From a virus: DNA of 64,000 nucleotides. Positions 45,520-63,400 of this stretch are shown piece by piece. The stretch is from IMG/VR virus record IMGVR_UViG_3300002026_000005. One strand, given 5' to 3'. How positions within the stretch are numbered: position 1 is the stretch's first letter; each line of letters starts with the position of its first letter. Under the pieces are notes generated by a model. The model did not search any database. It was given only the letters and a program-made list of their open reading frames with translations, and had not been told where the DNA came from. A program made the position numbers and the translations under genes.

Positions 45520-45593
45520 TAGGGAGTCAGGGACTCGAACCCTGGACAACCGACGTATCAGGTCGGTACTCTAACCAACTGAGCTAACCCCCT
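45520..45593 (-). tRNA. tRNA-Ile (anticodon GAT)
   Basis: Acceptor AGGGGGT/ACTCCCT, D arm GCTC-AGTTGGTTA-GAGT, anticodon stem CCGAC/GTCGG, loop CTGATAC, T arm CAGGG-TTCGAGT-CCCTG. Confidence 0.85.
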
Positions 45594-45600
45594 CTATCCA

Positions 45601-45858: not shown

Positions 45859-45895
45859 TTCTTTTCCTCCAGTTTGATTTATTACTGATTTTTCT

Positions 45896-46138
45896 CTACC
45901 ATTCTTTGTTGTACCTGAGATACAAAGCCTGCTGTCTTATTCCATACATTCTTGTTAGAACATCAGCTTCACCTCCGTTTACAACATACTCAACGTCATT
46001 AGACATCTCTTTTCCATTAAACATCCCACTTGTACTTGAAATCATTCCATGCTCGTCACACAAAGACATTACAACCTCAGCCAACTCTTCTGATGTAGAA
46101 CATTTGTTCACTTTTTGAAACTTCTCCAATTCTTCCAT
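45896..46138 (-). CDS. hypothetical protein (80 aa)
   Basis: ATG ORF ending in TAG with an A-rich leader. Confidence 0.45.
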   Translation of the reverse strand: MEELEKFQKVNKCSTSEELAEVVMSLCDEHGMISSTSGMFNGKEMSNDVEYVVNGGEADVLTRMYGIRQQALYLRYNKEW

Positions 46139-46193
46139 TTTGTTTGATTTTTTGTTTGTTTTGTTTTATTTATTCTTACTTGATTACACCTGT

Positions 46194-46278
46194 TGGCGGA
46201 AGGTGAGGGGATCGAACCCCCGGACCGAACCCGGCCACAGCTTAGCAAGCTGCTGCATTACCACTCTGCCAACCTTCC
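46194..46278 (-). tRNA. tRNA-Ser (anticodon GCT), type II with a long variable arm and encoded CCA
   Basis: Acceptor GGAAGGT/ACCTTCC with discriminator G and encoded CCA. Anticodon stem GCAGC/GCTGT, loop TTGCTAA. Variable arm GGCCG-GGTT-CGGTC, T loop TTCGATC. Confidence 0.85.
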
Positions 46279-46297
46279 TAACTTCCTTTGTCCTTCG

Positions 46298-46370
46298 TAG
46301 TCCTCCCGGGATTCGAACCCAGAACGAACACCTTAGAAGGGTGTTGCTCTTCCATTTGAGCTAGAGAACT
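46298..46370 (-). tRNA. tRNA-Arg (anticodon TCT)
   Basis: Acceptor AGTTCTC/GAGGACT, D arm GCTC-AAATGGAA-GAGC, anticodon stem ACACC/GGTGT, loop CTTCTAA, T arm CTGGG-TTCGAAT-CCCGG. Confidence 0.85.
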
Positions 46371-46389
46371 ATTTTTCCAATACTGCTTA

Positions 46390-47091
46390 CTACTTGAACA
46401 TGTAGTTGTACACCTCTTCAATGAAATCCCACCTCTCTTTGTTTTGAACTTCAGAGAAATCTATTGAAGCATCTACATCAACTGGACGTACAAGTAATCC
46501 AATGTTGTAGTCGTAGTGAATACTTTTTACTTTTCTTCCCCATATCGTTGTGTTTATGTGGCCTTCAAGGAGAATACCGGTACCATCCTTTTTATCCTTA
46601 GCGGCTCGAACAATCTCAGAAAGTTCTAAACATCTATCAGATAGATCATCAGTAGTCATTGCAAGATTTCTATCATACCCTCTATCTTCATTCATAGAAA
46701 ACTGTTGTTCCATTGATGCTCTAAGCTTGTGAATAGGGATATTATTACTACGAAAGAATTCCTTTATAAGTTCAACTACAGAATCAAATCTGTTTGAAAG
46801 ACGTTTCTGCTCATTATTCTTCACCAACTCCATTCCTGATGGGTTAGTTCCATGATAACACATACTTAGTTTGCATGATATGCTTTGAACAGTACAACCT
46901 TCTCTACCTAAGTGAGAACATGTTCCGCAACAAAGTCCTTTCTTCTTACAAAAAGCCCCGTTGCATGTGGTAAGACCCGACTCTTTTCTTATACCACAAA
47001 AGTTCGCCTTATTGTTTATGACGTCAAGTATTCTACATGCCTGCAAATACTTCTCTCTTTTCCAACTAGTTGTTCCAATAATTGATTTCAT
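46390..47091 (-). CDS. Cys-rich hypothetical protein (233 aa)
   Basis: The N-terminal half contains CGIRK..C.GAFCKKKGLCCGTCSHLGREGCTVQSISCKLSMCYH. It may be a metal- or Fe-S-binding protein of the CxxCxxCC type. The gene is AT-rich and ends in TAG. Confidence 0.45.
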   Translation of the reverse strand: MKSIIGTTSWKREKYLQACRILDVINNKANFCGIRKESGLTTCNGAFCKKKGLCCGTCSHLGREGCTVQSISCKLSMCYHGTNPSGMELVKNNEQKRLSNRFDSVVELIKEFFRSNNIPIHKLRASMEQQFSMNEDRGYDRNLAMTTDDLSDRCLELSEIVRAAKDKKDGTGILLEGHINTTIWGRKVKSIHYDYNIGLLVRPVDVDASIDFSEVQNKERWDFIEEVYNYMFK

Positions 47092-47145
47092 TTGATTTCT
47101 TTTTGTTTTGATTGATTTTATTTTCCTACTTTAAAAATATTTTTG

Positions 47146-47217
47146 TCGTCCCTCAGGGAGTCGAACCCCAAACGGCTGGGCCAGATCCAGCTGTGTTACC
47201 AATTACACCAAGAGACA
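47146..47217 (-). tRNA. tRNA-Gln (anticodon CTG)
   Basis: Acceptor TGTCTCT/AGGGACG with a weak U1-G72 pair, D arm GTGT-AATTGGTA-ACAC, anticodon stem GCTGG/CCAGC, loop ATCTGGC, T loop TTCGACT. Confidence 0.8.
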
Positions 47218-47929: not shown

Positions 47930-48781
47930 CTAACACTCAGCCATCCTAACCGTTTGGTACAGCTCATCTGAGCTCATTTTGTTCACTGTCTCCGTACTCA
48001 CTTCCGTACCGTTCAGAGTCAGTGCTTCTAGACCATGCTGTATTCTCAGGACCTTTCTGACTCTCATCAGGATCTCGGGGAACAACTTAGTCCATTTCGA
48101 ATCGGATATCGTCTTACTCTTGTGAGTAATTAGACTCCTTCCTGTTGCAAGCAAGGCTTCTGGCTCCTTGCTCCATGTTGTGATCATTATCGTCTCCATC
48201 CATTTCTCCAGAGCCTTTTCTTGCTCCGAAGTCAGACCAGGTACAACTCCGTTCTTCTGGGCCTCATGCACCGAGAAGGTCACACTGCGGGGACTCATCT
48301 CGAGCATCCTCTTTCCGAGATCATCAATCGCATTCCTCTTTTCCTGAGACAAATCAGGGTTAGAACGAAGCATCAGAAGTTTCACCGTCTGATACGCATG
48401 CTCTATTGAAGGACGCTCTCTCTCTTTGTCTCCATAGGTGAACACAACCTTACGAGGATACATGTTTCCAAGTTGGACATTGTCTCCGTCCTTGTCGTAA
48501 ACATTCAGGACAGGTTCTGTCTCCGAATAGAGAGCATGGTAGTCGGCTCCAGTCTTCTTGGTTGAAGTTTTGGTAGAGTGACTACTGCCTTCAGACTGTT
48601 TGGTTTCGACATGTTTTTCAATAGGCTTAAAATTCTCGAACTTGACTATGTTTTTCTCGGCATAATCTCTTCTTGCTCTCCAGTATACTGAGTAGGTGTA
48701 CTTTGCGTCTCCTGATGGGAACGCTGATGATATAACCCAACTTCCGTCTTCATCCTTGAAAGCCTGTCCAGATTCAACCAT
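47930..48781 (-). CDS. NADAR (YbiA/DUF1768)-like domain module, in frame with the upstream polymerase frame
   Basis: LGNMYPRKVVF...RPSIEHAYQTVKL, EPEALLATGRSLITHK and W..LFPEILMRVRKVL follow the NADAR signature order, compared from memory with E. coli YbiA (SEHYFQAQKF ... LLATAPAKLVEH). It ends in TAG. Upstream it is joined in frame through TGA 48788-48790 and TGA 49013-49015. Confidence 0.6.
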   Translation of the reverse strand: MVESGQAFKDEDGSWVISSAFPSGDAKYTYSVYWRARRDYAEKNIVKFENFKPIEKHVETKQSEGSSHSTKTSTKKTGADYHALYSETEPVLNVYDKDGDNVQLGNMYPRKVVFTYGDKERERPSIEHAYQTVKLLMLRSNPDLSQEKRNAIDDLGKRMLEMSPRSVTFSVHEAQKNGVVPGLTSEQEKALEKWMETIMITTWSKEPEALLATGRSLITHKSKTISDSKWTKLFPEILMRVRKVLRIQHGLEALTLNGTEVSTETVNKMSSDELYQTVRMAEC

Positions 48782-49012
48782 CTTATTTCATGTAGCAATC
48801 TCGTTCTCTTTTGAGTAAAGTTTTCTCATCTCATCCAAGAATAGATATGTTGCCACGTTCACTTCCCTTTCGGAGAAACCAGACTCTTTAGCGTGCTCCA
48901 TGAAATCCTTGTAAGAATATTCGTTTCCGATCGATGTAAAGTATCCTACGGAGAATTTTCTTATCTCATCAAGTCTACTATCCTTCTTAGGCTGCTGTGC
49001 CTCCTTCTGGTT

Positions 49013-52000
49013 TCAAGCCTTCTTCTCGGTCTTCCAAGTCTTCACATAGACAGACGTGTCTCCATTTGGCTTCTCTTCGTAACCCTGTCCAAGCAACCAC
49101 TTGATGATGGCGTGCTCTGAATGGGATCCATTGATGAAGTTGTTCTTACTAGAATACTCAGTCGAGTCCATCGCGAAACTTGCTCCTGCCTCAATGGCTT
49201 TCTCCATGTTGGCTTTCGTGTTCTCGAACTTCAGTTGGGATGCCCCGAATTCTCCTTCACCGCCTGAGTTTGAGACGAAAACGATGTCGTCCGACTCATA
49301 GCTTGTGTCGTTCACGGGAATTCCTCTAGTCTTCGCACTGTTGGCATACGACAGAGTCGAACTCCTCTTCTCGTTGTAGATACCCTTCTCGGCATAGATG
49401 AACTTGTTGGAGATAGAGGACTTCCTCATATCCTTCCTAGTCTGTTCCTGTTTCGATTCAGTCACGGCATCCAGAGTGAATCCGAACTTCTTTGTAGCCT
49501 TCTCTCCATCTGGATCTGATTTCGGACCAAATCTCTTGATGGCATCCAAAAGGACTTCTCCGTGACACCTGTAGCTTGTGCCTTTTCCGTGGGCACCGAA
49601 ACAGACAAGGGTTTTGTCGTCGAGGTTTCCACTCAGGATCTTGCTCACTATCCAGCTCCTTCTTTCGGGTTCGGTTTCTTTCGTCGTCATCTCTTCTCCA
49701 TCTTGACCGATGAAGACCTTGTGGGTGTAACCATCTGGATCCAGCTCAGACATCAACCAGGCCTCAAACAAGTCTACTGACCTATTCAGGTTTAGGTGGT
49801 CGTCGGCTCCAAACATTTCGGGGTTGCCGTAGTGTCTGTTGCGGGACATGTTCTGGGCGCCTCTGCCTATGAAGACGTAGTCGTCCATCACGCCGTTGTC
49901 GTCTGATTGTTCCTTCAGGGTCATAGAGAGTTTGGAGTTGTTTATGTTTCGGGACTTCTCTGTCTTCATCTTGTCCTTCACAAGAACAAGAGCCTTGTCA
50001 AGCAGTTCAGAACTGAAAGAGACCTTGAACTTCTCTATCTCTTCTACCATTGTCTCTAAGTCTATTATCTCATCGTAACGGAAGATGATTCCATCTAAGT
50101 CTGAACCATCCTGATTGGATGAGACAACTTCGGACAACATGTCTGTCATCGCGTTTCCGGTCATCATCAGTCGTACTCCCAACTTCTCGGCTATTCTGAT
50201 AGCTCTGTCATTCGTACTCTCAAACATCTCGATATCGTTTCCGTCTTTGTCTTTCGTCTTTCTGAATAGACTTCTCGAAACTGTTTGGAGTGACGGCAGC
50301 CCGAACTCGAAGAACTTTCCATTGGATTCTGATAGGATCGGAACCTCTATGTAGACATTGATCTTTTTCTTTCCGTCTTTTCTGTCCCCAATCTTCTTGA
50401 AGAGTTTTCCATTATCATTCGACATCACCCTCAGGAAACGGACAGAAGTCTTAGACAATTGTTCGTTCGTAACCACACTCGGAATCATCAGGTACGGAGA
50501 ACCAGAATAAGTTTCCCAACTATCCATCTCAAGCACTCTTACCCCATCTACTTCTGACATCCAACCTTTGTCGTTCACGACACCCTCATTCAGACGAGGC
50601 ACGACATCAGAGTTGTAGGCATTGTTGCCATGAATCTCATCAAGGATGTTGATGCCTCCGTTACCTTCCCGAAGGAAGTAGGTTGGGTCATTCAGTTCGA
50701 TCTTCATCGCATCCGTGAAAGAAGTAAATGATTGACCCTCGAAGCCCAAGTTTTCCAAGAAGAATCGGGGAGGAATAACCTTGATGACGGAGTTGTTGCT
50801 GAAATCCATCTGGTTAGAAAGGATAGTATGCTTAATCAAAAGTACCCCAAATTGTTTCTTTACCTCAGATATTCCTCTCTCAACTTCTGTGCCTCCATTG
50901 TTGCCTTCGAGCATCGACTCAAGTTCATCCATGATTGTCTGGATGAAAATCCGATCACGAGGATCCTTGAATTGGAACAGACTCATGAAGGAGTTATCCT
51001 GGGTTTCACCAGGTTGGGTCATCGGCACCAGCTTGTGGACGATCGAGTCCTCATTGAACTCTCCAGACAACCTAAGGATGTCTATCAGCTCAACAAGACT
51101 TCCAATAGACTTGAAGCCGGCCTTCAGTTCCTCTTCATTTGGAGCAATATTCCTCAACATAACCTTGAGGTTATGGATACGGCTATTTCTCTTCTGACCA
51201 ACATCGAAGCTGAATACTTGCTCATTGGATTTCGCTTTGGAGTTAAGTAGGGTTCGGAGGTTGACAACGGCATCCCAAAGTTCTGGGAACGTCGCCTTAA
51301 GTCTTTGCCCCGAATCGGTTCTCTTCACGGCATCCTTGTCTGCGATAGTCTTCGGTTCAACCATGTCGATCCTGATTACTCTTCCATTGGAATAGACATT
51401 GAAGAGTTTCATTCCAATAAGGAATATCTTCTCTCTCTGTATCTGGGCATCAATTCCCTTCTTTCCGGCTTTCAACATCTGGTCTTCGAGATTCTTCCTG
51501 TAGTAATTGAACATGATCTTTCTCTCCAATGTCGATGTGATGGAACTGATGTAGTCGACATCCCTATTGAAGGCATCTAGTCTCTGAAGCACACCCAGGA
51601 ATGCGGGTGAATACTTCATGAAATGGGGAGCAATAATTCCCAAACTCTTGTTGAGAGCCTTCGTGAAGAACGTCTTCAATACGTCATACTTACTGTCTGG
51701 CCCATAGATTGCCTCAGCAACAGGAGTCCCGTCAATAGTCCTTATACAGTCTTTTGCTTGTGACACTTTTTCCATCTTGCTCTTGAATTTTAGTGTGTTC
51801 ATCACTTCTGGACCACTGCTACGGGTATCGGCGTCAACTACTTGAGTTGCTTCCTGTACCCTGAATGCTATCCCGTTTATGTTCTTGAAAATGTTCAACA
51901 TCTCCAACTGGAAAGCCATGTCGGTTTTCGTCATCGATCTCTGTCCATCCTTATCACCAACAACAGAAGCTGCATGGGCTTTCAGGGCACTAAACATCGA

Positions 52001-55000
52001 CCTCTTATCGAGATGGTTTATTTCGGCCCTGTCTCCGAGAAGGAACTCATCGAATCCCACAACGGTCTCTCCTCTTATGGCTCCGATCTTCTGTAAGCCA
52101 GATATGAGAGAAGACTTGATGGAAGAACTCGAGTTACTCAGCCTCTGGGAAAGTTCCTCAACAGACATCGACTTAGATGGCCATCTGGAGAAATGTTCTG
52201 TTTCGGCATAGGTTATTTCTCCCATACCCACAACAGCCTTTCGGATCCATTTGGTGCGGGTGTTCGTGAACATCCTGTTGTCACTCACATTCTCTTCCGA
52301 AACCATTCCTTCAGAATCGATTTTTCCCTCAAAGATTTCCCTGATGGATGGTTGAGCCACGAAGAACGACACCGTCTCTAAGTCGATTCCCATCATCAGC
52401 ATCGCCACAATCGTGTTGATACTCTTCTTGTTCCATCCCAACGGGATTGGCTGCTTGATGATATCGAAGAAGTTCGCAGGAAGTTTTGCCAACACCTGGG
52501 TAATGGTAAGACCCTTGTCCATACCTTCTGCAGAACCAAACAAGATTTCTCCGTTCAGGCCCTCATTCCAACCCAAGTGCTTGTGTTTCACGATGACACC
52601 AGTCTCTTCTCCCTTTCCGTTTAGAACAATCTCTACTGCCTTTCCGAATGTCTTGAGAAGGTTTTCCTTCTCAGAGATATCGTAGTAGACAGGAACTTCT
52701 TTGAAGGCTGTTGCCCTGATCTTCTGGAAGATATGGAGCGCGGCCAAGGACTTTGCTCCGATACCTTTCAGAGTCACACCATTCACGGCAGCCTCTCTGA
52801 ACAGGAATTGACCCATAACTGAAGTCGGAACGATATCTTTCTCGTCTATCTTGTAGAGAGCCGAGATGATGTCCTTTATCCTAGTTATCTCCTTGAAAGA
52901 AGCCGGGTCAGTCATTTCCTTGTGGGAATCCTTGTGCTTCAGAATAGAGGAGAAGATATCCACGATCTTGTTCTGTTCAGCCATGAAGAACTTCCTTTCC
53001 AATAGGGAGAGTTCTTTCTTCTCCTTCTCTTCAAGAACGTCTTTCTCTAGCAGTTGGGCGTAACGGAAGTCTTCTTCTTCTGTCATTCGTAGTAACTTAA
53101 CCTTGTCTTTCATGGACTCGGACATTTCTTCCTCAGTCATTTCTTCGTCCGAAAACAGCATCGTTCTCAGATCCATTCCATTGTCCTTCATCAGGTTGTA
53201 GTACATAAAAAAGTACTTGTCTCCGTCGAAATCGAGACCCGAAACTCCCTGTATCTCATGGGGTCCGACTACTACTCCCCTGTAGACATCTGGAAGGAAT
53301 CCGACTATCTTGTAACGGATGGTGGAGTACTTTGCCTCAGTCGGGATCCTGGCACAAATTCCTGACAAAACCTCATCGCTGAGCTCGTCTATGCTGAACC
53401 TGTTCAGGATTCCTTGTGGACGAGCCACAAGGATTTCGACCTCAGTAACTTCCCCATTCTCCAATTTGGAGAACTGGAGTCTTCCTGGTGCCTTCTTCGA
53501 GCTCCATTCGATTCCCCCAACATTCTTGTCCCAAACGTAACCTTCTGGCTTCTTGAAGCCTAGGGCCGAAACGTTCACGGCAGAGCCTCCAGGAGTACTC
53601 TCTTTCTGAACCGAGTTCCACATGGATGCGAGCATCGATTCGAATTGGTAGGCGAGACCCGGCACGTCGAGGAACATCTTCTCAACAAGCTCAATAGAGT
53701 TTGACGGGATCCGTCCAGAGTTCCGGATCTGGTCTATTACTGTTTGGTACAGTTCTAGTCCTGACTGCTTCAGCTCGATCTCGGTAGAAATCTTCTCGGC
53801 AATGTTGAACATGGTTTTCTCATAGAGTTTCATCAGGTCCGAACCCTTCATCGTACTTCCTCCAACCTCATACTCGGCCTCCAAATTCATGTTGGAGAAG
53901 ATGAGTTTCCTCAGCTGGGTTAGAGCCGAGGCATCATCGTCCTTGAAGTGGTCTGGAAAATCCTGTTGGGTTCCGAGTTTCTCTATTGGTAACTCCCTTA
54001 CCATACTCTTGTCGAACTTGGTTTCGTCTACAGTCTCATCAGAGTTGAAAATATTCATCACTGAAGTCATTCCGACCTTGAAGGCTGATGGTGGTACCGC
54101 CATATCTACTTCGTTCTCTTCCATAAACTTCCTGAGCTTCTCTAGTTCCGGCAAGGAACTCGTGATGGCTTTCGAGAGTATGAAGAATCCGGCCTTGATC
54201 TGGTTAGCACTATCGAACACGACCTGATCTCCATCAGCTGTGTCGTATGATATTTGTTGTCTATCGAAATAGAAGAGCTTCAGGACAGGAAAGAATTCCT
54301 TCTGGAGACTCTTATTCTCACTATTGAATAGGGTTCCATTGTCTGCCGCATCCAGAGCTTTCTCTAGACTCTCAGTGAGTTGGTTACGGCTACGGAAGTA
54401 GTCCTTCGCAAACTTTACTGATACGAATACCTGACCATTGTTTACCTCTGCATTTCCCTCTACCTCAACATCATTCGTCTGGATAACTCTGAAGTTCGGT
54501 CTGTCCCACAAGTGACGTAGAGCAGGAGACACCATTTGTTTGGCTCTCTTGTTTGTCTCCAACATACTCTTGTAGAGATAGATGTCTCCATTGAGCTCCC
54601 TAAACTGGGTGCTGTAGGCGAGATGGGAATTGATGACGAAGCTGTAGATGAATTCTTCAGGAGTGATGTTTCTCTCCAAGAAGTTTCCATTGTCTCCATT
54701 GATGTTTGTCTTGACGACATTATCCAAGAAGGTTCTGTACAGTTTTCCGGCTTCGGTCTTCGTCTTCTGTTTCTTGAAGTCGGCGAGGAATATCTTCGAC
54801 ATACTTTCGACATCCTTCTTGATAAAGTCGGCAATCAACTTCTCTATCCTTTGGTATGACATCGACTGGGGCATCTGTCTCAATTCCTCCTCAGTAACAT
54901 TACTATTACCGACCTCATTGTAGACATCGAAAAAGGCATCCTTCATGAAGATTCCCCTGCTATGGAGACTCTTGATGTCCGACACTGTTCTCCCATCAAC

Positions 55001-57697
55001 TTTCAGGTGAAGGAACTTGAATGCATTTCCTACTGGAAATACATCCTCGAGAGTACTTACGTCGGCTCCAGTGTCATAGTTTTCATCCATGAAATTTCCG
55101 TTCACCTTTGATTGGTAGACAAACTTCTTATTCTTGATGATGACTCTTCTGTTCTTAGACTTGGATTCCATAATGAGAACCTCTCCGTCTGAAGCGATTA
55201 GGTAGTGAGCAAACTGGACAAGCTTTGTTGTATCAAGATTCTTGTTGAAGAAATGTTGACCCTTCTCATCCAGAGTGACTTCTGTGTTCCACTTTGAGGT
55301 GTCGAAAAAGATTCGGTTGTTGTCCCAAACTCTTTTCATCTCCTCTCGGATGCTGTTGAAGACGGCTCTGAACATCGGATTCGATTCGTGGTTGATGAAC
55401 TCCGCCACATCTTTCGCATTATTCTCATCACTCCAGTCAACTGTGTAGCTGAAAGAGTCCTGAAAGTAGTGGCCTTCGATACCGATACGATTCTCATTCT
55501 TTCCGACATAAATCTCTGCTTCCGAATTAAATATCGATGTACTGTCTGAAGGGATCACGATAGGCACAACTGCCTTGCCGTTCTTGAACCCATTCATGAA
55601 GTTTATCATCGTCAAGTATCTCCAGTCCTTCTTAGATAGACCCAAGTATTTCGAACCTTTTCCGGTGCTGCTGTTCCTCATACCCCCAATAGAATGGACT
55701 TTTCCGAAACGTCTAGGCATGCCAGATTTCTCGTTCTTCAGGCTCTCTTCAGTTAGGTGGTTGTATTGGGAGATACCGAACTCTTTCTCTCCCGAGAAGT
55801 TTATCATCGTATTCTCGACACTCTCGATAGAGAAGATGGCAAGAAGCTTCGATACCCTTTTTAGGGAAGAGTTCTCATCCTGGACATTCAGTTGGTCGAG
55901 ACTAATCTCATAGGCAGACTTCTGGGAATTTATGTCATTGATGAACGCCTCTAGAAGCTCTTGGGGTTGAAGGTTGCCTATTCTATTCTTATGAATGTTG
56001 TAGGCGGCAACCGTGATGATTCCGTTTGGACGGTAACCATACTCGGTATCCCACTCTCCATTGGAGAAGTTCGTCTTCTTTTCGTCCATGTTTACTTGGC
56101 TATAGAACACGTTTCCTCCCTCAATAGAGACTCCCAAGATCCTCCAAAGCCTTCCCAAAGTCAGGGCATACAACGCGCTGTCTTTCGAGAACTTCTTCAG
56201 GTTGTCCAACGTCTTGAAGATCTCTGACTCAGGATCATTCAGGCCATTACCGACAAGAGTCTTTTTCAACTCAGAGTTGTCCCTAATCTTCACGATCTGG
56301 GAAGCAATCATCTTCGAGATCCTCATCTGGATATGGTCGTTGGTTGAGGTCTTGTTTGCCTTGTAGGTAGAACTAATCATCTGGCCTTTGGTTTCTCTAA
56401 GAGACACACCAAACACTTCTTGTTTCTTCTTCCTGAATAGGTTGAACCAGTCGACCTTGAACTTCTGGTCGTTCTTCATCAGGTTGGATATCTCGAGGAA
56501 ACTTGAGTTCACCATCTTGCCGAGGAATTCAAGCTTCTCTATCATCTCTTCTACTGTGAGTAGGTCAGATAGTTGGTTGCCGAGGTAGCTCTTGTATTTG
56601 CTCAGGATGAATGGGGTATCGATACCTCCAAAACCCTTCACGGGAATCACACTACCTTCTGTGAACGAGATCTTCTCGCTGATACGTGCAAGCTGTATCA
56701 GGATGTAGGGACTTGGCACATGGGGATCTACCTTCAGATGACTTCCGTCAGCAAAAGAGGTTCTCTCATGGGACACTATTTCTGTCACCTTGTCCGTATC
56801 AAGCTCGAGCATCGAGATATTGAACTCATCATAAATTACTTTTGTCGCGTGTTCAAAGAAGCCGCTGTTGTTTATGGCACCCACTACTCTCCTCAGTTGG
56901 TTGATAGAGGAACTAATAGCGTCCACATTCATCCACTTTCCATAGGAGAATCCTTCGGTTTCCATCTGGACAACAGACGAATTCCTCTTGATGAAGTCGA
57001 CGTCTTCCTTGGTGAGCTCCTTGCGACCCTTGCGGCCGTCTATCTCTAACAGCTCAGTTAGGATTTCTATCCTCCTGTTTAGTTCAGACAGGACAGAATT
57101 CTTTGAAGCAGTCTGGATAAGTCCCGAAACAGTTCGACTCTTGTCTTTCGACATGAAACTGAGTAGTTCTGTTCGAACAGTCTCTTTGGCATCCTCTAAG
57201 ACTGAGTCAAGTTTCTCTTCCATCGCATCAAGTTTCCTCGACACCGCCAGAATCTGGGAGTCCAACTTTGACAACATCTGTCTCAAGACAACTGTGTCAG
57301 ATTCAGATAAGTTTTTTATCTCATCAACAAGACGCTCTCTTTCGGCAGTAAGTTTGGAGAACTCTAGACTCTTCTTGTCCAGAAGTTCAGACCTCTTTCC
57401 CAACCCGCTTTGGACATAGATTTTCTCCACAAGAGCCTTAATACGCTTGTCCTCAATGGCACTCGGGTTCTCGATTTTGGACACGATGTCCTCAATGAGT
57501 TCTGTCAGGGCATTCTTTGTCTGAACGCCGGCCTCATCCATAACCTCTGTGTTGGTCAGGATGGAATAGAGACTCTTTATGGCCTCGTGTTGTTCAGAGA
57601 AGGAGGAGAACTCTGAGAAAGACGAATGTCTTTCTATTCCCTCTATCATCTTCTGAACTCTTCGCTGTGAATTGCTTTTGAATCGACCTCTTTCCAT
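49013..57697 (-). CDS. giant virion-type two-barrel RNA polymerase (crAss-like / phi14:2 gp66-type) with a C-terminal DUF4326-like module
   Basis: 2894-aa uninterrupted ORF. The beta-prime-like DPBB motif ARIPTEAKYS...VVVGPHEIQGVSGLDFDGDKYFFMY places DFDGDK at 53216-53233. The C-terminal segment YVFIGRG...RHYGNPE...LVCFGAHGKGTSYRCHGEVLLDAI (about 49540-49879) matches the DUF4326 pattern. The ORF is bounded on both sides by TGA, not TAA or TAG. Confidence 0.8.
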   Translation of the reverse strand: MERGRFKSNSQRRVQKMIEGIERHSSFSEFSSFSEQHEAIKSLYSILTNTEVMDEAGVQTKNALTELIEDIVSKIENPSAIEDKRIKALVEKIYVQSGLGKRSELLDKKSLEFSKLTAERERLVDEIKNLSESDTVVLRQMLSKLDSQILAVSRKLDAMEEKLDSVLEDAKETVRTELLSFMSKDKSRTVSGLIQTASKNSVLSELNRRIEILTELLEIDGRKGRKELTKEDVDFIKRNSSVVQMETEGFSYGKWMNVDAISSSINQLRRVVGAINNSGFFEHATKVIYDEFNISMLELDTDKVTEIVSHERTSFADGSHLKVDPHVPSPYILIQLARISEKISFTEGSVIPVKGFGGIDTPFILSKYKSYLGNQLSDLLTVEEMIEKLEFLGKMVNSSFLEISNLMKNDQKFKVDWFNLFRKKKQEVFGVSLRETKGQMISSTYKANKTSTNDHIQMRISKMIASQIVKIRDNSELKKTLVGNGLNDPESEIFKTLDNLKKFSKDSALYALTLGRLWRILGVSIEGGNVFYSQVNMDEKKTNFSNGEWDTEYGYRPNGIITVAAYNIHKNRIGNLQPQELLEAFINDINSQKSAYEISLDQLNVQDENSSLKRVSKLLAIFSIESVENTMINFSGEKEFGISQYNHLTEESLKNEKSGMPRRFGKVHSIGGMRNSSTGKGSKYLGLSKKDWRYLTMINFMNGFKNGKAVVPIVIPSDSTSIFNSEAEIYVGKNENRIGIEGHYFQDSFSYTVDWSDENNAKDVAEFINHESNPMFRAVFNSIREEMKRVWDNNRIFFDTSKWNTEVTLDEKGQHFFNKNLDTTKLVQFAHYLIASDGEVLIMESKSKNRRVIIKNKKFVYQSKVNGNFMDENYDTGADVSTLEDVFPVGNAFKFLHLKVDGRTVSDIKSLHSRGIFMKDAFFDVYNEVGNSNVTEEELRQMPQSMSYQRIEKLIADFIKKDVESMSKIFLADFKKQKTKTEAGKLYRTFLDNVVKTNINGDNGNFLERNITPEEFIYSFVINSHLAYSTQFRELNGDIYLYKSMLETNKRAKQMVSPALRHLWDRPNFRVIQTNDVEVEGNAEVNNGQVFVSVKFAKDYFRSRNQLTESLEKALDAADNGTLFNSENKSLQKEFFPVLKLFYFDRQQISYDTADGDQVVFDSANQIKAGFFILSKAITSSLPELEKLRKFMEENEVDMAVPPSAFKVGMTSVMNIFNSDETVDETKFDKSMVRELPIEKLGTQQDFPDHFKDDDASALTQLRKLIFSNMNLEAEYEVGGSTMKGSDLMKLYEKTMFNIAEKISTEIELKQSGLELYQTVIDQIRNSGRIPSNSIELVEKMFLDVPGLAYQFESMLASMWNSVQKESTPGGSAVNVSALGFKKPEGYVWDKNVGGIEWSSKKAPGRLQFSKLENGEVTEVEILVARPQGILNRFSIDELSDEVLSGICARIPTEAKYSTIRYKIVGFLPDVYRGVVVGPHEIQGVSGLDFDGDKYFFMYYNLMKDNGMDLRTMLFSDEEMTEEEMSESMKDKVKLLRMTEEEDFRYAQLLEKDVLEEKEKKELSLLERKFFMAEQNKIVDIFSSILKHKDSHKEMTDPASFKEITRIKDIISALYKIDEKDIVPTSVMGQFLFREAAVNGVTLKGIGAKSLAALHIFQKIRATAFKEVPVYYDISEKENLLKTFGKAVEIVLNGKGEETGVIVKHKHLGWNEGLNGEILFGSAEGMDKGLTITQVLAKLPANFFDIIKQPIPLGWNKKSINTIVAMLMMGIDLETVSFFVAQPSIREIFEGKIDSEGMVSEENVSDNRMFTNTRTKWIRKAVVGMGEITYAETEHFSRWPSKSMSVEELSQRLSNSSSSIKSSLISGLQKIGAIRGETVVGFDEFLLGDRAEINHLDKRSMFSALKAHAASVVGDKDGQRSMTKTDMAFQLEMLNIFKNINGIAFRVQEATQVVDADTRSSGPEVMNTLKFKSKMEKVSQAKDCIRTIDGTPVAEAIYGPDSKYDVLKTFFTKALNKSLGIIAPHFMKYSPAFLGVLQRLDAFNRDVDYISSITSTLERKIMFNYYRKNLEDQMLKAGKKGIDAQIQREKIFLIGMKLFNVYSNGRVIRIDMVEPKTIADKDAVKRTDSGQRLKATFPELWDAVVNLRTLLNSKAKSNEQVFSFDVGQKRNSRIHNLKVMLRNIAPNEEELKAGFKSIGSLVELIDILRLSGEFNEDSIVHKLVPMTQPGETQDNSFMSLFQFKDPRDRIFIQTIMDELESMLEGNNGGTEVERGISEVKKQFGVLLIKHTILSNQMDFSNNSVIKVIPPRFFLENLGFEGQSFTSFTDAMKIELNDPTYFLREGNGGINILDEIHGNNAYNSDVVPRLNEGVVNDKGWMSEVDGVRVLEMDSWETYSGSPYLMIPSVVTNEQLSKTSVRFLRVMSNDNGKLFKKIGDRKDGKKKINVYIEVPILSESNGKFFEFGLPSLQTVSRSLFRKTKDKDGNDIEMFESTNDRAIRIAEKLGVRLMMTGNAMTDMLSEVVSSNQDGSDLDGIIFRYDEIIDLETMVEEIEKFKVSFSSELLDKALVLVKDKMKTEKSRNINNSKLSMTLKEQSDDNGVMDDYVFIGRGAQNMSRNRHYGNPEMFGADDHLNLNRSVDLFEAWLMSELDPDGYTHKVFIGQDGEEMTTKETEPERRSWIVSKILSGNLDDKTLVCFGAHGKGTSYRCHGEVLLDAIKRFGPKSDPDGEKATKKFGFTLDAVTESKQEQTRKDMRKSSISNKFIYAEKGIYNEKRSSTLSYANSAKTRGIPVNDTSYESDDIVFVSNSGGEGEFGASQLKFENTKANMEKAIEAGASFAMDSTEYSSKNNFINGSHSEHAIIKWLLGQGYEEKPNGDTSVYVKTWKTEKKA

Positions 57698-57718
57698 TTG
57701 TTTGATTGTTAGGTTTGT

Positions 57719-58477
57719 TCAGGCACGCTTATTTCCAAGCATGCTTCTGATTGTTGTTATTAGGTTCTCGAAAAATGTCCACACCGATTCTGGTATGAAC
57801 GAAGGTCGTCTGTAATACTTCACACTGACGTCCTCATACATGTCCGCTAATCTTTCTTCTAGCAAGATCTCTCTCGCCTCATCCAACTCCACTCCACTCA
57901 TCTTCATCTGGGAAGACAGTTCGTCTTCACCGATCTTGAACATGGCTTTCGCCTCCTTCAGGATCTTTTCTCTTGTTTTCGCATCCAAACTCCAGAAGAT
58001 TAGGTGAAACACTTCGTGTCTCAGAACCTTCTTGTTTGCACCCTGCGATAGGTGTATCATCCCGTTTGCCATGTAACCCCACAGCTTACGGCCTTTCTTC
58101 TTTATTATTCCTTCATGAAAACTAACAAGGTCCTCGTCTCCGAGAAGCCTATCTATCTCCTCAATAACTTCTTCATCACTCTCTATACTATTTCCAAGAT
58201 GTCTCGAGTCTTCCTCGAAAGGTTTGGTTCTAAATATATCCTCTACGTCCCTAAGTAAACTTTCTTGATCATCTTTCGGATCCTTAACGGTCTTCCCGGC
58301 CTCAACTATTGGAGCTGTCTCTATCGAGTCTGGTTTCTTTGCCCTACTTACTCTCATCTTCTTCACGAGCAACTTCATCCTGCTCTCTGGGGAGTCCTCG
58401 AAATGGGTCAAGATCTTTCCTTTCGCATCCCGAACACTTCCGACGTCTGTGGTCAGACCAAAGGTCTCAACCAACAT
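57719..58477 (-). CDS. zincin-like HExxH metallopeptidase module, in frame with both flanking ORFs
   Basis: HEVFH lies at 58004-58018 and is followed by EERLADMYED. The module is joined upstream through TGA 58571-58573 plus 31 open codons. It is joined downstream through TGA 57719-57721 plus 7 codons to the polymerase ATG. Confidence 0.6.
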   Translation of the reverse strand: MLVETFGLTTDVGSVRDAKGKILTHFEDSPESRMKLLVKKMRVSRAKKPDSIETAPIVEAGKTVKDPKDDQESLLRDVEDIFRTKPFEEDSRHLGNSIESDEEVIEEIDRLLGDEDLVSFHEGIIKKKGRKLWGYMANGMIHLSQGANKKVLRHEVFHLIFWSLDAKTREKILKEAKAMFKIGEDELSSQMKMSGVELDEAREILLEERLADMYEDVSVKYYRRPSFIPESVWTFFENLITTIRSMLGNKRA

Positions 58478-58570
58478 CTCTTTGTAGCTGCCGTATTCCT
58501 TACCGACTCTATCTACACTCAGATCCTTTCCGATCCTGTCCCCGTGTCTTGCCGACTTACCAAAACTGTT

Positions 58571-60397
58571 TCAGTTGATATTCCTCTTCATGTCTTTCCA
58601 CATGCCGTGGTTCAGAAGTAGTTGTTCCAACTCGACTTCAGTCATCTCGACAGACTTCTTCTCGAAAAGACTTCCTTTTACTACAGTCCCATCAGTGATG
58701 ACACCAACTGGAGTAGAAACGATCGAACTCATCTGGGAATCACTAAGTTTAGTTCCGTCTCCGAAGTCGGTTCTCATGTCGAAGTGATTGAAGACCGAAA
58801 CCTCATAGATGGTTCCACTCGCATCCGAACGGGGCACTATCTCCATCGTCTTGAAAACTCCTGCACTTCCCTTTGGTTTCCGAGTGGTTGTACTGGAGTC
58901 TCTCCACGTAATGGATACACGCCCACCTTCTTTCGATGCCCTAATAGTTTGAGTCATAAGGTTCTCGTCATACATCCCATTACTCCACTCAGTAGACCCG
59001 AGTATTCCACTCTCGACAAGACTCGCAACCTCATCAAGTGTCGTGTTACAATACTTGATACCAGTGTCTTCACTCTTGTAGGCCTTATCCATCTTGATTG
59101 GCCTATAGTCGTGACCCGTAACAAACACCGTATCGAGCACTAGTTTCAGGGCCTCAGGGTTCTGTCTCCCAACCAGACTTCCGAGAAGGAAGTTTATGGT
59201 GTTGTCGACATCCCTATTGTCTGTGAGTGTTCCTGTCTGGAGAGGGATGTACATGAATCTCTTCTCACCAGATTGGTCATTGTACTGGATGCGGGTGTAG
59301 ACTTTTCCCACTTCAAAAGAAGGAGCACCAGCCACATTGGTTCCGGACTCATCGACGCTCACGAACTGGTTGGAGGCCATAGACACGTGGAACAACTCTA
59401 CCTTGTCGGCTTTCTTCCCGAACGCCGTTGTCAACTTCATCTGACCCCAACCTGACTCGTCCTTTCCTCTAGCCTTTATCACCCTGCCTCCAGTTGTACC
59501 GAAAACTTCCACCGAGCTACGGAAGCCCTTGTCGACCTTGATGTTTTCGAAGAAGTCGTGGCGGAAAGCAGACAACTTCTCTCTCTCCCTATACATCTGG
59601 AGCAACCTCAGACTCTCTCTCCTAAGAAGGATTTCGTCGGCCTTTATGGCTCTCGAGATTTCTGGAGTAGAGACCCCTATAGACTTGTTGGCCTTGATTC
59701 GGGCACGGGCGTCTTCCATCGAGGAAGTTATCCTCCTCATGTAGTCGTCCGTAACCTTTATCGTCGGAATTCCGTACTCCACAACCTCCTTAGTGTTCCC
59801 ATCAATCACAACGGTTCTCTTTGAGGCAATTGGGAGGTTCTCGGCAGAGAAGTCATAGTGTTCCTTTCCGACAGCACTCTCATCGAAGACGAGGTCTATC
59901 TTGAAACTCTTGGCTGATACTGATGATGACGCCTCAAACATCTGTCTCTTGGCCGAGTCATCAGCAACCTCATAACCGAACTCGGTTCTGTTTAGTCCCG
60001 ACATCGGCTCTATGGGAAGAAGGATATCACTCAGCTTCTGTTCATTCTGGGGAATGGACTTGATGATGGACTCGGCCACGGCATCGAAGGTTCTGAGCTT
60101 CTGCTCCCCATTCTCGATGTGGGCGATTCCCTCTATAAAGTAGTCCTCAGCCTTCTGGTTTCTGTCCATAAGGAGACGAGCAATGTTCTCGTACTCAGTC
60201 TTCAGAGACGCCTTATTCCTCATGAAAGTCTCACCAGTAATACCGAGTTCCATAAGCAAACTCTTGATAGAGATCGTTATCGGAACCCCAGTAGACTTGG
60301 CACTTCTACGAGTCTGGTCAGTAAATTCTCTCTCCCCAATCCTCCTGATAGCTGCGGAGATCAACTCCATTGCCTCTTCGGCACAAATTCCTATCAT
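58571..60397 (-). CDS. N-terminal module of the polymerase polyprotein frame (608 aa, function unknown)
   Basis: The ATG at 60397 is bounded upstream by an in-frame TAG. The ORF ends at a TGA and continues in frame. Confidence 0.55.
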   Translation of the reverse strand: MIGICAEEAMELISAAIRRIGEREFTDQTRRSAKSTGVPITISIKSLLMELGITGETFMRNKASLKTEYENIARLLMDRNQKAEDYFIEGIAHIENGEQKLRTFDAVAESIIKSIPQNEQKLSDILLPIEPMSGLNRTEFGYEVADDSAKRQMFEASSSVSAKSFKIDLVFDESAVGKEHYDFSAENLPIASKRTVVIDGNTKEVVEYGIPTIKVTDDYMRRITSSMEDARARIKANKSIGVSTPEISRAIKADEILLRRESLRLLQMYREREKLSAFRHDFFENIKVDKGFRSSVEVFGTTGGRVIKARGKDESGWGQMKLTTAFGKKADKVELFHVSMASNQFVSVDESGTNVAGAPSFEVGKVYTRIQYNDQSGEKRFMYIPLQTGTLTDNRDVDNTINFLLGSLVGRQNPEALKLVLDTVFVTGHDYRPIKMDKAYKSEDTGIKYCNTTLDEVASLVESGILGSTEWSNGMYDENLMTQTIRASKEGGRVSITWRDSSTTTRKPKGSAGVFKTMEIVPRSDASGTIYEVSVFNHFDMRTDFGDGTKLSDSQMSSIVSTPVGVITDGTVVKGSLFEKKSVEMTEVELEQLLLNHGMWKDMKRNIN

Positions 60398-60465: not shown

Positions 60466-63400
60466 CTAGCAATTCCTGATGTTCGAGAACAGGCCGTTGC
60501 CGGCGTCTTCATTGTTGTTCTGGAGCATCTCTATCAGGTCTGATGGGTACAGGAAGGAACTCTTCTTCAGACTCTTGTTTATCATCGTTACCAACTCTTC
60601 CTCTGTTGTCTTGCTGCCTATTTCCATCTTTACTTTCTTCCCGGTTACTCCCATAATCGAGAAGAAGAATCTTCCTCCTTCATCGTGAATGAGCTTCCTC
60701 AAGTAGAGTTCTTTCACGACTTTCCCCACAAGCTCATTCTCGAACGGAACAACCTCATTCACGTCTAGGTTCTCTGAGGGTTCAGATGCCTCGTTAGATT
60801 TCCTCTGGTTCAGGTCGTTCTTGTAACGTGCTGTGTACAACCCCAGTTTCAACATTGCTGCCTCATCCAGGATCTTGTTTCCGAACCTCATCAGGAGCTC
60901 CAAGTCGTTCTGGACTCTCTCACTCAGGAGGTTCAGGTCTCCGTACTCATCCAAGCTGGTTTTGTTCTTAGCTGTCTTGGCAAGGAAGTCCTCAAACCTC
61001 TTATTAAACCAGGTCAAAGCATCCGAGAAGATCCTTCTCTCTCCTTCAGTCAGACTATTGACGATACCAAGGTTCCCGACTACAGTCTCTCTCACAGCAA
61101 TGGACATCTTACGAGACACGTTCTTCGGATCAAACTCACCAGTCTCCTCTGGCTCTCTTGTGTTTTGGTTCCCACTCTGACTATCGTTACCGAGAGAGTT
61201 GTAGTAATCCTCCTGCTCCTGTCTCTGTTGTTCTTCCGAACTTCCAGATGTCGCATCAGGATCTACTCCAAACCCTTCGTTCACTCCACTACTTCCCTCA
61301 ACGTCATCAGTCTGAGACTGGTTCTGGACAGGTGCCGGCTGTTGCTGATTCAGGTCATTCAGGTTCTGTTCCTGAGTGAGACCCACTCCGCTATTACTGC
61401 CACTATTCCTATTGGCATCAACGGCTGCCGTCCTCTCCTTACCTGACTTGATCTCTTCGATGGCCTCATCTATTGTCGTGATTACGTCGTCCCTATCTAG
61501 GGAATGGTTCCAGTTCTTCTCGAAGTAGGCCTTTGTCCTCTTTCCGAGTTTGAACGGATTCCCAAGCAGAAGCTCTGCCGCCTTCGATACGCTGTTGCCG
61601 ACTTTAGCCAACTTTGATTTCTCTCTGTTCAGACTCAACAACTTCTTCTCCTCCGGATCCTTCGTCTGTCTCCAAGCCTTGTCGAAACTCACTTCTTCCT
61701 CGTTTATCTCCTTGCTATCCTGGAGCTCCTTCAGTCTATCCTTCTTCATCTGTTCGAGAGTAGACAGTTTCTTCTCCGTGTCTTCCTTCGAGTCCAGTAT
61801 GGCCTTGACATTGGCTTTGTCTTCCTTCTTTCTGTCCAGCCTGAATTTGTTCCAGTTCTTTCTCTTTTCCCGAAGGATCTCTCTCGGATTCGAGTGGAGA
61901 CTCATCAGTCTCTGGTGGTTGCTGGCATACTCAGAGGTAGACTCATTCAGCTTTCCGATAGAAGAGAGATAGTCCTGGAACTTTTGGGCATCATGGATAC
62001 TCTTTATCTGGTTCGGATCCTTCAGCATCGCCTTCAGGTTCGGGTCAACCGTTTTGTCTTTCTCAAGACGACCCCAGGCTTCCGTCCTCTCCTTCTCTTT
62101 TCTCTTGATGGATTCCCTGTTCAGCCTGATATTGTTTCTGATACTCAGCTTCTCCTCACGGGAAATCTTCCTCAAACCTTTCTTGTCTAACATAAGGAGA
62201 GTTCTCATCGTCTCATTCTGAATCATTTCCGTCTCTATCTGGGCGTTCTTCTTGATGTAGTCTTTCGAGTTCTGGTCAAGCTGTTTTCCGCTGTTATCCA
62301 CAATGGTCTTCATGTACTCGGCCTCAGCCTTGTTCATGTTGGATTCATTCTCTCTCACCTGCTTCAGGATCTTGTCCATCTTGTAGGCTCCCTGAAGACG
62401 CTCCTTGAAGACAACGGCTTTCTCGAGTTCCGACAACTTCCTGGTGGAAGCATCTGTCTCTATCTGGTTCCAGACAGCTCGGGCATTCTTTAGCCTCGAA
62501 ATCTCTTCCCCGAACTCTTTCTTCCCAATAGTGACTTTCTTTCCGTCTACTTGGGTCTCGACCTCTTTCTCCTTCTCGAGCATCCCTATTCGGGCATCAA
62601 CTCTCCCATTCTGGATGGCATCATAGTAGGAAGAGATGCGGGCGTCATCTTGACCTGTTTCCGTCATGTGTTTAGCGAGACCCTGGAGATTCTTTTTCTC
62701 CCTGATCTCATTCTTTAAGCCCTTTATTTCACTGTAGAGACCCGGGACGTTCATTGGGTTGAAGACACCCATAATCATACCGGCCCTCACTGAGTTCCCG
62801 AACTCATTTGAAACAAGTCCGTTTGTGTCTCCTATTCCTGTCATCGCCTTTGCTACTGTTCCGTAGTCATTGAAGAGATTCTTCGCGTTCTTTATAGTGA
62901 ACTCGTTCAGTCCGACTCCGTCCTTTCCATACTTCTCATCTCTCTCTCCCGGAACATTCGGCACATATCATCCGTTCTTGTTCTTCTTCCAGAGTGTTCC
63001 CTCCAGTTGGTTGTTGGCTCTCTGTCCCGCAACGTCCTGAACACCTTCTTCAACTCCTTCCATGATGGAACCGATCATCTGTTTCATGAGGAAACTCGAT
63101 ATCTTTCCGGCATTCGTGTTTCCGAGCGTCCAGGGCATCATCCCCATTCCACTCTGAGCATAGTCACCCCACTGGAGAGCCATGTTCTCGGCACGAAGGT
63201 CGTTCATTCCTTTTGAGGCCTCTAGTCTTATGTAGTCATCTATCTCGGGTGGAATCTCTGCCTCTGGAGACAGACCGTTCCTGGCTCTGTAACCGTCCTG
63301 AAACTGTTCCACTCTCTCCTTGTAGGCTCCACCAACTTCGGCATTCGTCTCCCTCTCTCTGGCATACCTGTCAGCCGCGAAACGGACTCCTCCAGACAAG

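Follow-up and report, generated by a model that had tools for sequence, protein, structure and literature searches.

For crAss-like phages, both the recoding of late genes and the fusion of RNA polymerase and zincin in polyproteins have already been published. Recoding of TAG to Gln or of TGA to Trp was reported for 243 crAss-like phages and mostly concerns the late genes (Yutin, 2021; PMC7886860). The same late-gene pattern was found by Borges (2021; bioRxiv 10.1101/2021.08.26.457843), where a suppressor tRNA was detected in just 35% of the code-4 phages. Fused polyproteins with a zincin domain were described by Drobysheva (2020; bioRxiv 10.1101/2020.03.07.982082), together with the hypothesis that the zincin may process the polyprotein. 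The giants compared here are gp65/gp66/gp67 of phage phi14:2 and their fused orthologues as well as cr118_1 gp14 (4946 aa), cr11_1 gp66 (4388 aa) and P0018 (3452 aa); in the latter, the zincin is joined to the polymerase in one standard-code ORF.

Here, a window of 64,000 nucleotides from the virus record IMGVR_UViG_3300002026_000005 was analyzed. By homology, its source is a divergent crAss-like phage, nearest to the Suoliviridae and with sparse late-gene recoding. Very probably, this phage reads TGA as Trp in its late genes, and the locus at 47930..60397 on the minus strand encodes one giant virion RNA-polymerase protein. The pattern is similar to that of the code-4 crAss-like phages, in which TGA is likewise found in the large terminase, the portal and the RNA-polymerase block, aligned positions carry Trp, only late genes are affected and a suppressor tRNA is not always detectable. 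The nearest relatives belong to the Delta group (Suoliviridae), in which recoding is common, and cr273_1 contains 36 in-frame TAGs in its own 5794-aa giant protein. In contrast to the code-4 phages, recoding is very sparse here (~6% of the late Trp codons) and 0 of 18 detected tRNAs is a suppressor. Furthermore, the phage shares only 30-50% protein identity with the described crAss-like phages (Crassvirales).

Within the late genes of the window, 15 TGA stand against 221 TGG in 17298 codons, usually one TGA per gene. All late ORFs (28/28) terminate in TAA or TAG without overlap conflicts, and the endolysin gene ends in a tandem TGA-TAG. Thirteen of the 15 late TGAs are followed by at least 100 codons in the same frame without TAA or TAG, compared to an expected one third (binomial P 3e-5). 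The early-like genes (n = 21) harbor no TGA and 48 TGG. Early and replication genes thus dispense with the codon, with marginal support for a restriction to the late genes (P = 0.04).

In the large terminase gene (2481..4580, plus strand), the reading frame is interrupted by a TGA at 3333-3335. The halves on either side of it map collinearly to phrog_6681, and cr273_1, cr1_1 and cr118_1 have Trp at the aligned position. The portal gene (4959..7613, plus strand) is interrupted at 5898-5900, again with both halves collinear on one family (phrog_6547). Here, the window reads YITV-TGA-HVCWKSFKK and the relatives VNVWHVCWKSFKK and VNVWHACWRSLKK, with Trp in both. A virion structural protein (23698..27564, plus strand), which matches phrog_28748 with collinear halves, has its TGA at 26386-26388 aligned with Trp in three relatives. 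For the late gene at 21603..22295 (plus strand; TGA 21984-21986) as well as for the TGA at 11606-11608 in ORF 11288, Trp is present in the best homologue. Further in-frame late TGAs lie at 343-345, 14954-14956, 20734-20736, 32216-32218 and 36923-36925. In the same block as the polymerase locus, the upstream gene (60466..63999, minus strand) consists of 371 aa, a TGA (62968-62970) and 832 aa (1205 aa) up to the TAG at 60466, and its start lies beyond the window edge; it maps into the 4946-aa protein of cr118_1, as does the polymerase core. Outside the window, a peptidase gene carries three in-frame TGAs. The major capsid protein contains no TGA. By codon usage, the segments following the TGAs at 343, 3333, 14954, 20734, 26386 and 36923 and junctions 1 and 3 of the polymerase locus are coding; the segments after 5898, 11606, 21984, 32216 and 62968 and after junctions 2 and 4 lay outside this scoring. 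The distribution of the TGAs over the genes corresponds to a random use of Trp codons, and a test for the evenness of one per gene gave P = 0.12. Together, these comparisons show that TGA must be translated genome-wide in the late genes for virion, packaging and lysis functions. According to the alignments in five other genes and at junction 4, the amino acid inserted is almost certainly Trp.

Since TGA would be recoded in all late genes, the five modules into which a sequence-only reading had divided the polymerase locus are expected to form one giant protein. The reverse complement of 47930-60397 is 12468 nt long (4156 codons, the stop counted), beginning with the ATG at 60397 and ending with the TAG at 47930-47932. 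With TGA read as Trp this gives 4155 codons, and TGA at codons 609, 893, 3795 and 3870 are the sole in-frame stops, separating pieces of 608, 283 (31+252), 2901 (7+2894), 74 and 285 (2+283) aa. Recomputation thereby reproduced the frame, TGA positions and piece lengths of that reading exactly. Because the four TGAs appear to be ordinary late-gene sense codons, the locus is best described as one gene, predicted to encode an N-terminal region, a zincin-like domain, a crAss-type RNA polymerase with a DFDGD motif, a DUF4326-like region, an unnamed C-terminal domain, a small conserved domain and a NADAR domain.

The proposed module identities were upheld for the zincin and the polymerase and only in part for the others. 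When the five pieces were searched against Pfam, PHROGs and sequences of solved structures, nothing was obtained at normal thresholds, and the N-terminal 608 aa had no detected homologue. The zincin-like domain (57584..58165, minus strand) spans TGA 2 and contains HEVFH (HExxH) at 58004-58018. Its region matched cr128_1 gp051 and P0018 in local phmmer searches (E 6.5e-8 and 8.6e-7) and the phage collection in tblastn (E 0.01). A Pfam match for the region was not found, and its assignment as a putative metalloprotease is based on the motif and homology. This homology to the zincin regions of crAss-like giant proteins supports a zincin adjoining the polymerase. The RNA-polymerase core (52208..54496, minus strand) carries the catalytic DFDGD at 53219-53233, residue 2389 of the frame, and is 23% identical over ~500 aa to a 'putative RNA polymerase' of crAss-like phages (tblastn E 1e-13); a sequence search of solved structures gave no match for the polymerase. 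The DUF4326-like region (49547..49879, minus strand) reached E 0.004 and 18.2 bits with Pfam PF14216, compared to a cut-off of 25, and is thus to be regarded as a resemblance to this family only.

The C-terminal 'tail' domain (49019..49504, minus strand) belongs to no Pfam family, is common to many giant and small phage proteins, and in P0014, P0015 and P0018 occupies the C-terminus or a position close to it. The small conserved domain (48605..48970, minus strand) is composed of the former 'linker' and the N-terminus of module 5, spans TGA 4 and matches residues 3074-3201 of P0018 (phmmer i-E 6.8e-15). For the NADAR-like domain (48041..48538, minus strand), library-wide matches range from E 1e-14 to 1e-4. 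All six aligned homologues of module 5 (6/6) match the Pfam model PF08719 with a best E of 8e-17 and the window sequence itself does not, so that the name NADAR comes via homologues only. A query across junctions 3 and 4 yielded 36 matches in an exhaustive protein search. No close relatives of module 2, module 5 or the polymerase core were obtained from IMG/VR, and no homology was seen between the linker or module 5 and the third giant protein of the relatives L021 and L022.

Similar to the fused giants, the predicted protein has a DFDxD core preceded by a zincin HExxH on the same chain, C-terminal accessory domains and almost no cysteine, and its gene adjoins structural genes. It differs in the set and order of the DUF4326-like, tail, small and NADAR domains, which is absent from the relatives examined, in the four recoded TGAs that interrupt the ORF and in the N-terminal region without homologue. 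As suggested by the homology and the near absence of cysteine, the 4155-aa protein is probably a packaged virion component that is injected, like its homologue gp66 of phage phi14:2.

The claim that all TGAs fall between recognizable modules was circular, because the modules themselves had been delimited by the TGAs, and it is wrong for junctions 2 and 4, both of which lie within conserved domains. TGA 2 (codon 893, 57719..57721, minus strand) lies within the zincin domain, in its conserved C-terminal portion, where alignments with cr118_1 gp14, cr128_1 gp051, cr273_1 gp35 and P0018 span the junction and the motif IKQMERGRFKSN 3' of the TGA is conserved. The residue aligned to it is Tyr in cr273_1, and in cr118_1 and cr128_1 a Trp lies 1-3 residues off. 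TGA 4 (codon 3870, 48788..48790, minus strand) appears to be a Trp codon within the small conserved domain, since P0018 reads ..AVMKSN-W-KEGVERGNIIKDEDGEW.. where the window reads ..ENEIAT-TGA-NKMVESGQAFKDEDGSW... The ATGs following TGA 2 and TGA 4, which had been taken as starts, are internal residues of conserved motifs. Homology thereby shows that the predicted protein is continuous across both junctions. The comparison of TGA with sense codons in relatives therefore gave Trp at junction 4 and Tyr at junction 2, and at junction 1 a homologue covering the site was not found. As precedents for fusion, cr118_1, cr11_1 and P0018 all possess single ORFs under the standard code.

TGA 1 (codon 609, 58571..58573, minus strand) is read as an internal sense codon. 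The next 31 codons contain no start and have a codon-usage score of +0.41, compared to a coding median of 0.42. TGA 3 (codon 3795, 49013..49015, minus strand) is situated after the tail domain. The codons behind it also lack a start and score +0.55, and the conserved domain 3' of TGA 3 begins ahead of the first ATG, which bears out the earlier claim that the 231-nt linker is coding. Both scores match the coding median and far exceed intergenic values. The lack of start codons, these coding statistics, the strain deletion described below and the terminal cysteines show that the protein should also be continuous at junctions 1 and 3. In the distant homologue P0014, a TAG ends the gene ~14 residues past the position of TGA 3. 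Junction 3 may thus mark the end of an ancestral gene. Partial termination is conceivable at any of the TGAs and most of all at this one, where it would give a truncated product.

Three independent assemblies, namely ENA ERZ2286684, Logan SRR931067 and the window, carry the same TGAs. In addition, the variant strain L006 (99.6% identical) keeps the TGAs at junctions 1 to 3, and a net 417-nt in-frame deletion has removed TGA 4 together with the ATG of module 5. In this strain module 5 is reachable only via TGA 3, and the four changes 3' of the deletion are all synonymous. Across the block, 61 differences separate the window from L006, 42 synonymous and 19 non-synonymous, which shows purifying selection. 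Together with the homology and the coding scores, the deletion bears out the view that the five pieces are a single translation unit read through the TGAs.

How TGA is decoded was approached by a tRNA survey of the window plus 21.7 kb beyond it. Within these 85.7 of ~93.8 kb (ENA ERZ2286684 NODE_1, 15069-23130, being the ~8 kb left out), 18 tRNAs were detected, and no tRNA(UCA), tRNA-Trp, RF1 or TrpRS was found. Eight of the 18 tRNA genes are located at 42123..47217 on the minus strand, none with a UCA anticodon and none for Trp. When ARAGORN was run at lowered thresholds, its calls were scattered within coding regions, and none was a credible suppressor tRNA. A suppressor tRNA decoding TGA could be encoded in the unsurveyed 8 kb or by the host, or be too divergent for detection. 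The recoding might delay or gate late-gene expression, and the zincin domain may cleave the polyprotein or act on the cell wall. Selenocysteine insertion was considered and rejected: homologues carry Trp and not Cys at the TGA positions, and an Rfam search at the gathering threshold found no SECIS family.

Programmed readthrough of stop codons is known from the A1 protein of Q-beta, where Trp is inserted at UGA, and from retroviral gag-pol. These systems use one dedicated site with a stimulatory context, produce two functional isoforms and otherwise follow the standard code. The locus resembles them in that a UGA read as an amino acid leads to a longer protein, and the sequence-only reading had considered its four TGAs as dedicated, tunable readthrough points between modules, which set the ratio of short and extended polymerase. 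All four stops are TGA and in frame, and competition between a suppressor tRNA and RF2 would leave some termination at every TGA. At junction 3, which corresponds to the end of P0014 and lies near the ends of P0015 and P0018, termination would even give a familiar architecture. In contrast to the known systems, however, many unrelated genes are concerned here, and special contexts or RNA structures are missing: the +4 base has the same distribution after TGA as after TGG, an A following TGA was tested and is not special, and folding at the four TGAs gave z-scores of -2.3, 0.15, -0.58 and -0.66 and therefore no shared downstream element. TGA also occurs inside the large terminase, the portal, virion proteins, the peptidase and other single-domain genes, whose truncated forms have no plausible use, which speaks against switches specific to this locus. 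Furthermore, 4 of the 39 Trp codons of the ORF are TGA, fitting the genome-wide rate, junctions 2 and 4 interrupt conserved domains, and a 'polymerase-only' form would have to start at a Met internal to a conserved motif. Dedicated readthrough points are thus very unlikely. Natural readthrough of UGA in bacteria typically amounts to a few percent or less. A leaky readthrough of this kind by the host tRNA-Trp, without any suppressor, would dampen low-copy virion proteins throughout the genome, and would fit the lack of a suppressor tRNA in 91% of the genome as well as the TGA-free gene of the major capsid protein, the most abundant virion protein, beside TGAs in the portal, the large terminase and the giants. 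We nevertheless regard it as distinctly unlikely, as four TGAs in one ORF at a few percent each would leave a negligible yield, the TGA spread does not differ from random Trp codon use and published recoded phages often have no detectable suppressor tRNA as well.

Five standard-code genes sharing a frame by chance, with the 231-nt stretch (48782-49012) non-coding, would be what code 11 gene callers deliver as separate pieces, and an ATG does follow TGA 2 within 7 codons and TGA 4 within 2 codons. The same frame at four junctions would arise by chance in only ~1/81 of cases, before other evidence, and the large terminase and the portal would each be broken. This arrangement is contradicted by the collinear halves, the Trp alignments, the junction-spanning homology and the coding scores, and is extremely improbable. 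Nonsense mutations in a phage that is decaying or defective, and likewise errors of assembly, are just as improbable. For these, nothing speaks apart from the presence of the stop codons. Against them stand in-frame stops that are only TGA and never TAA or TAG, a complete lack of frameshifts, the same TGAs in independent assemblies and the variant strain, and the purifying selection mentioned above. A further possibility goes beyond the preferred reading of late-gene TGA as Trp. Here, the phage would only have begun to recode TGA to Trp, having converted ~6% of its late Trp codons and lacking its own suppressor tRNA, and TGA 3 would be the former polymerase terminator, a role suggested because distant homologues end there, so that reassignment welded a NADAR-containing gene onto the virion polymerase. 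If this were true and suppression incomplete, the phage would make the extended form alongside the ancestral short one. As a whole, this scenario is unlikely.

With late-gene TGA read as Trp, the crAss-like genes appear normal in the annotation and there is a single virion polymerase protein of 4155 aa, whereas under the standard code the large terminase and the portal are both broken and the polymerase locus falls into five pieces. The polymerase locus reveals no new regulatory principle. The phage joins the known code-switching crAss-like phages as a very divergent member with sparse recoding, useful for the question of how recoding begins, and raises the question of how TGA is decoded in a phage seemingly without a suppressor tRNA.

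A separate observation concerns cysteine. The giant proteins are nearly free of it except for conserved terminal cysteines. Cys occupies residue 5 and the very end of the 4155-aa protein, an arrangement shared with the single-ORF giants P0014 and P0018, and in the product of the upstream gene the single Cys is the last residue. No such terminal cysteine is present at any of the four TGAs; the terminal cysteines appear as marks of the real protein ends. In N4-like phages, the ejected proteins are cysteine-free, among them the vRNAP gp50 and DEV gp71 (PMC11445570); that article makes no mention of the terminal-Cys pattern of the crAss-like proteins. In both groups, cysteine is strongly depleted from the giant injected polymerase and from the proteins encoded with it in the operon. 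In contrast to the N4-like phages, the crAss-like proteins keep a single Cys at their extreme C-terminus, and the protein that follows has one at residues 3-5.

The frame encoding the virion RNA polymerase runs on the minus strand from the ATG at 60397 to the TAG at 47930 over 4156 codons (stop included). Its only in-frame stops are TGA codons at 58571–58573, 57719–57721, 49013–49015 and 48788–48790 (junctions 1 to 4 along the gene), which leave pieces of 608, 31+252, 7+2894, 74 and 2+283 aa. The frame, the four TGAs and the piece lengths described in the sequence-only reading all match these recomputed coordinates. The window sequence is identical in the independent assemblies ENA ERZ2286684 NODE_1 (93808 bp) and Logan SRR931067, and in a 99.6% identical strain (L006, ENA ERZ2286707) the TGAs of junctions 1, 2 and 3 are retained. 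The 2894-aa piece gives a match to the "putative RNA polymerase" annotated in crAss-like phages (E 1e-13) and carries DFDGD at 53219–53233, which bears out its earlier assignment, and the zincin assignment is borne out by the alignment of the HEVFH region with relatives. The NADAR assignment finds indirect support, through homologues of the C-terminal module, and the match to DUF4326 lies below threshold.

The phage belongs to the order Crassvirales: the large terminase is 30–44% and the portal 44–50% identical to crAss-like phages, with the closest matches in Suoliviridae, and for the major capsid protein the match is to the crAss capsid family. Since the ENA contig NODE_1 breaks at window 61093, within an 832-aa gene, and resumes at its position 1, the phage has a circular or circularly permuted genome of ~93.8–94.1 kb. 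For 243 crAss-like phages, reading of TAG as Gln or TGA as Trp has been reported, mostly in late genes (Yutin et al. 2021, PMC7886860), and the same late-gene pattern was described by Borges et al. Furthermore, some crAss-like phages are reported to encode the polymerase together with its two neighbours as a single huge, likely cleaved polyprotein, of which one component bears a zincin-like protease domain (Drobysheva et al.). Giant ORFs of 4388–5794 aa are annotated in the crAss-like phages cr11_1, cr118_1 and cr273_1. The TGA-linked frame is a known phenomenon, correctly read, in a new divergent genome.

The TGAs are not a peculiarity of the polymerase locus. In a stop-to-stop survey, an ORF ending in TGA is usually followed in-frame by the next ORF, in contrast to those ending in TAA or TAG, and PHROG searches revealed single conserved genes each split by one TGA. 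Here, the large terminase falls into 2481–3335 (profile positions 85–302) and 3384–4580 (330–737), the portal into 4959–5900 (7–304) and 5904–7613 (325–827), and a virion protein into 23698–26388 and 26542–27564. The window has 28 late ORFs, all ending in TAA or TAG, with 15 TGA versus 221 TGG in 17298 codons, and at least 100 open codons follow 13 of these 15 TGAs (binomial P 3e-5). By comparison, all 48 Trp codons of the early-like genes are TGG (P 0.04), and none of these genes ends in TGA. A peptidase gene of the same genome outside the window (L019 3880–5577) is also split, by three TGAs, with its pieces collinear on phrog_4191; TGA accounts for three of its eight Trp codons, a share well beyond the genome-wide 6%. 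The nearby endolysin gene (L019 6437–7033) terminates in tandem TGA-TAG. The TGA excess of the peptidase and the tandem stop of the endolysin agree with published accounts of preferential recoding in the lysis region.

The merged ORFs were translated and compared with cr118_1, cr273_1, cr128_1 and cr11_1. TGA stands opposite Trp in the large terminase, the portal, the virion protein (three relatives), ORF 21603 and ORF 11288; in the portal, for example, YITV-TGA-HVCWKSFKK of the window aligns with VNVWHVCWKSFKK in relatives. By these alignments, the amino acid inserted at TGA is almost certainly Trp. Read in this way, the TGA-spanning peptide of the large terminase is ..ASWDSSIEVIR, and the predicted tryptic peptides of the polymerase frame are NINWNSFGK at junction 1 (where the TGA follows ..KRNIN), AWTNLTIK at junction 2 (after ..GNKRA), AWNQK or KAWNQKEAQQPK at junction 3 (after ..TEKKA) and ENEIATWNK at junction 4 (after ..NEIAT). 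As separate products, pieces would begin at MLVETF, MERGRF or MVESGQ. At least 18 tRNA genes were found in four clusters (including window 42123–47217, L019 6052–9886 and L008 1822–2059) using ARAGORN and Rfam on 85.7 of ~93.8 kb, for Arg (two), Met (two), Lys, Cys, Ile, Ser, Gln, Asn, Gly, Leu, Phe (two), Glu, Thr, Tyr and Asp; neither a tRNA with anticodon UCA nor a tRNA-Trp is among these 18. Suppressor tRNAs have been reported in only 35% of code-4 phages (Borges et al.). Judged by the large terminase, the nearest annotated relative is cr273_1 (L018 11514–28898, NC_055904.1), which is also recoded, but with TAG; 36 TAGs are in-frame in its 5794-aa giant protein and four each in its large terminase and portal. 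More than one stop codon has been reassigned within this lineage.

Genome-wide recoding of TGA to Trp in late genes supersedes the mechanism proposed previously, in which the four TGAs would act as tunable readthrough switches between modules. A dedicated inter-module switch is unsupported, since the following base (A after 53% of TGAs and after 46% of TGGs), downstream RNA folding, which revealed no shared signal at the TGAs, and the spread over genes, as expected from random Trp codon use, are all unremarkable. Partial termination is conceivable above all at junction 3: because the polymerase gene of a distant standard-code relative (P0014, on L021) stops at a TAG ~14 residues past the equivalent position, this TGA may stand at a former gene terminus. 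Continuity is nevertheless indicated there as well, as no ATG, GTG or TTG lies ahead of the conserved stretch and the 37 codons directly behind the TGA have a codon-usage log-ratio of +0.55 (coding median 0.44, intergenic -0.1 to -1.9).

At junction 1, which no homologue spans, 31 codons without a start codon follow the TGA, with a log-ratio of +0.41. At junction 2, the zincin region aligns with cr118_1 gp14, cr128_1 gp051, cr273_1 gp35 and P0018, a giant protein of 3452 aa that a crAss-like phage encodes in the standard code, obtained by exhaustive profile-free search. The alignment runs past the TGA into a conserved motif (IKQMERGRFKSN in the window, FKNIVSGKFKDN in cr118_1, YKDIVDGKYKAV in cr273_1), so that the Met taken as polymerase start is internal to the protein; cr273_1 has Tyr opposite the TGA, and Trp lies 1–3 residues off in cr118_1 and cr128_1. 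At junction 4, the 74-aa linker and the N-terminus of the C-terminal module form one conserved stretch in P0018, with Trp at the exact position of the TGA (..SN-W-KEGVERGNIIKDEDGEW..). The suggestion that the 231-nt linker is coding finds support.

In strain L006, a net 417 nt are deleted in-frame (window ~48567–48987 versus L006 16040–16060), which takes out TGA 4, the larger part of the linker, and the ATG and first ~72 codons of the C-terminal module. The small conserved domain formed by the linker and the N-terminus of this module would hence be dispensable or variable in nature. Downstream, four of four substitutions are synonymous, and in this strain the NADAR part is accessible only via TGA 3, unless translation starts at an internal Met. 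The L006 contig stops 155 nt after the deletion, which leaves a small chance of an assembly artefact.

Terminal cysteines independently mark genuine protein termini. Giant proteins encoded in the RNA-polymerase block of crAss-like phages contain 0–0.2% Cys, and one protein has Cys within its last 1–6 residues while the next has it at residue 3–5 (L021, L022, cr128_1, cr118_1, cr11_1), often as the sole ones in 1200–3400 residues. L021 3977–23485 reads ..KTEC*, then MKC...KKC*, then MAKC; further such loci are present in L022 (5449–23940), L012, L013 and L015. In the window, the single Cys of the upstream 1205-aa ORF is its last residue (..IRNC*, 60466–60468), and the 4155-aa ORF has Cys at residues 5 and 4155 (MIGIC...MAEC*, 60383–60397 and 47933–47935), with no Cys on either side of any of the four TGA junctions. 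These cysteines could serve end-to-end linkage of ejected proteins, perhaps by disulfides between neighbours, or be a packaging or processing signal. The pattern is not described in a study of an N4-like phage, which gives cysteine depletion only (PMC11445570).

The portal carries a C-terminal extension of ~250 aa (window 6900–7613), rich in Gln, Lys and Glu with a QQQQQQEQQMQQMQMQSQQQ run, which falls outside the portal-profile match. The C-terminal "tail" domain of the polymerase piece (window 49019–49504) represents a widespread family without a Pfam model match, with the consensus GYGK..SST..YA...G.PVN..Y...DVVFVS.NG....AL.AGAT.LTDS. It is found in phage giant proteins, where its placement with respect to the DUF4326-like and NADAR domains varies, and in free-standing proteins of 140–280 aa.
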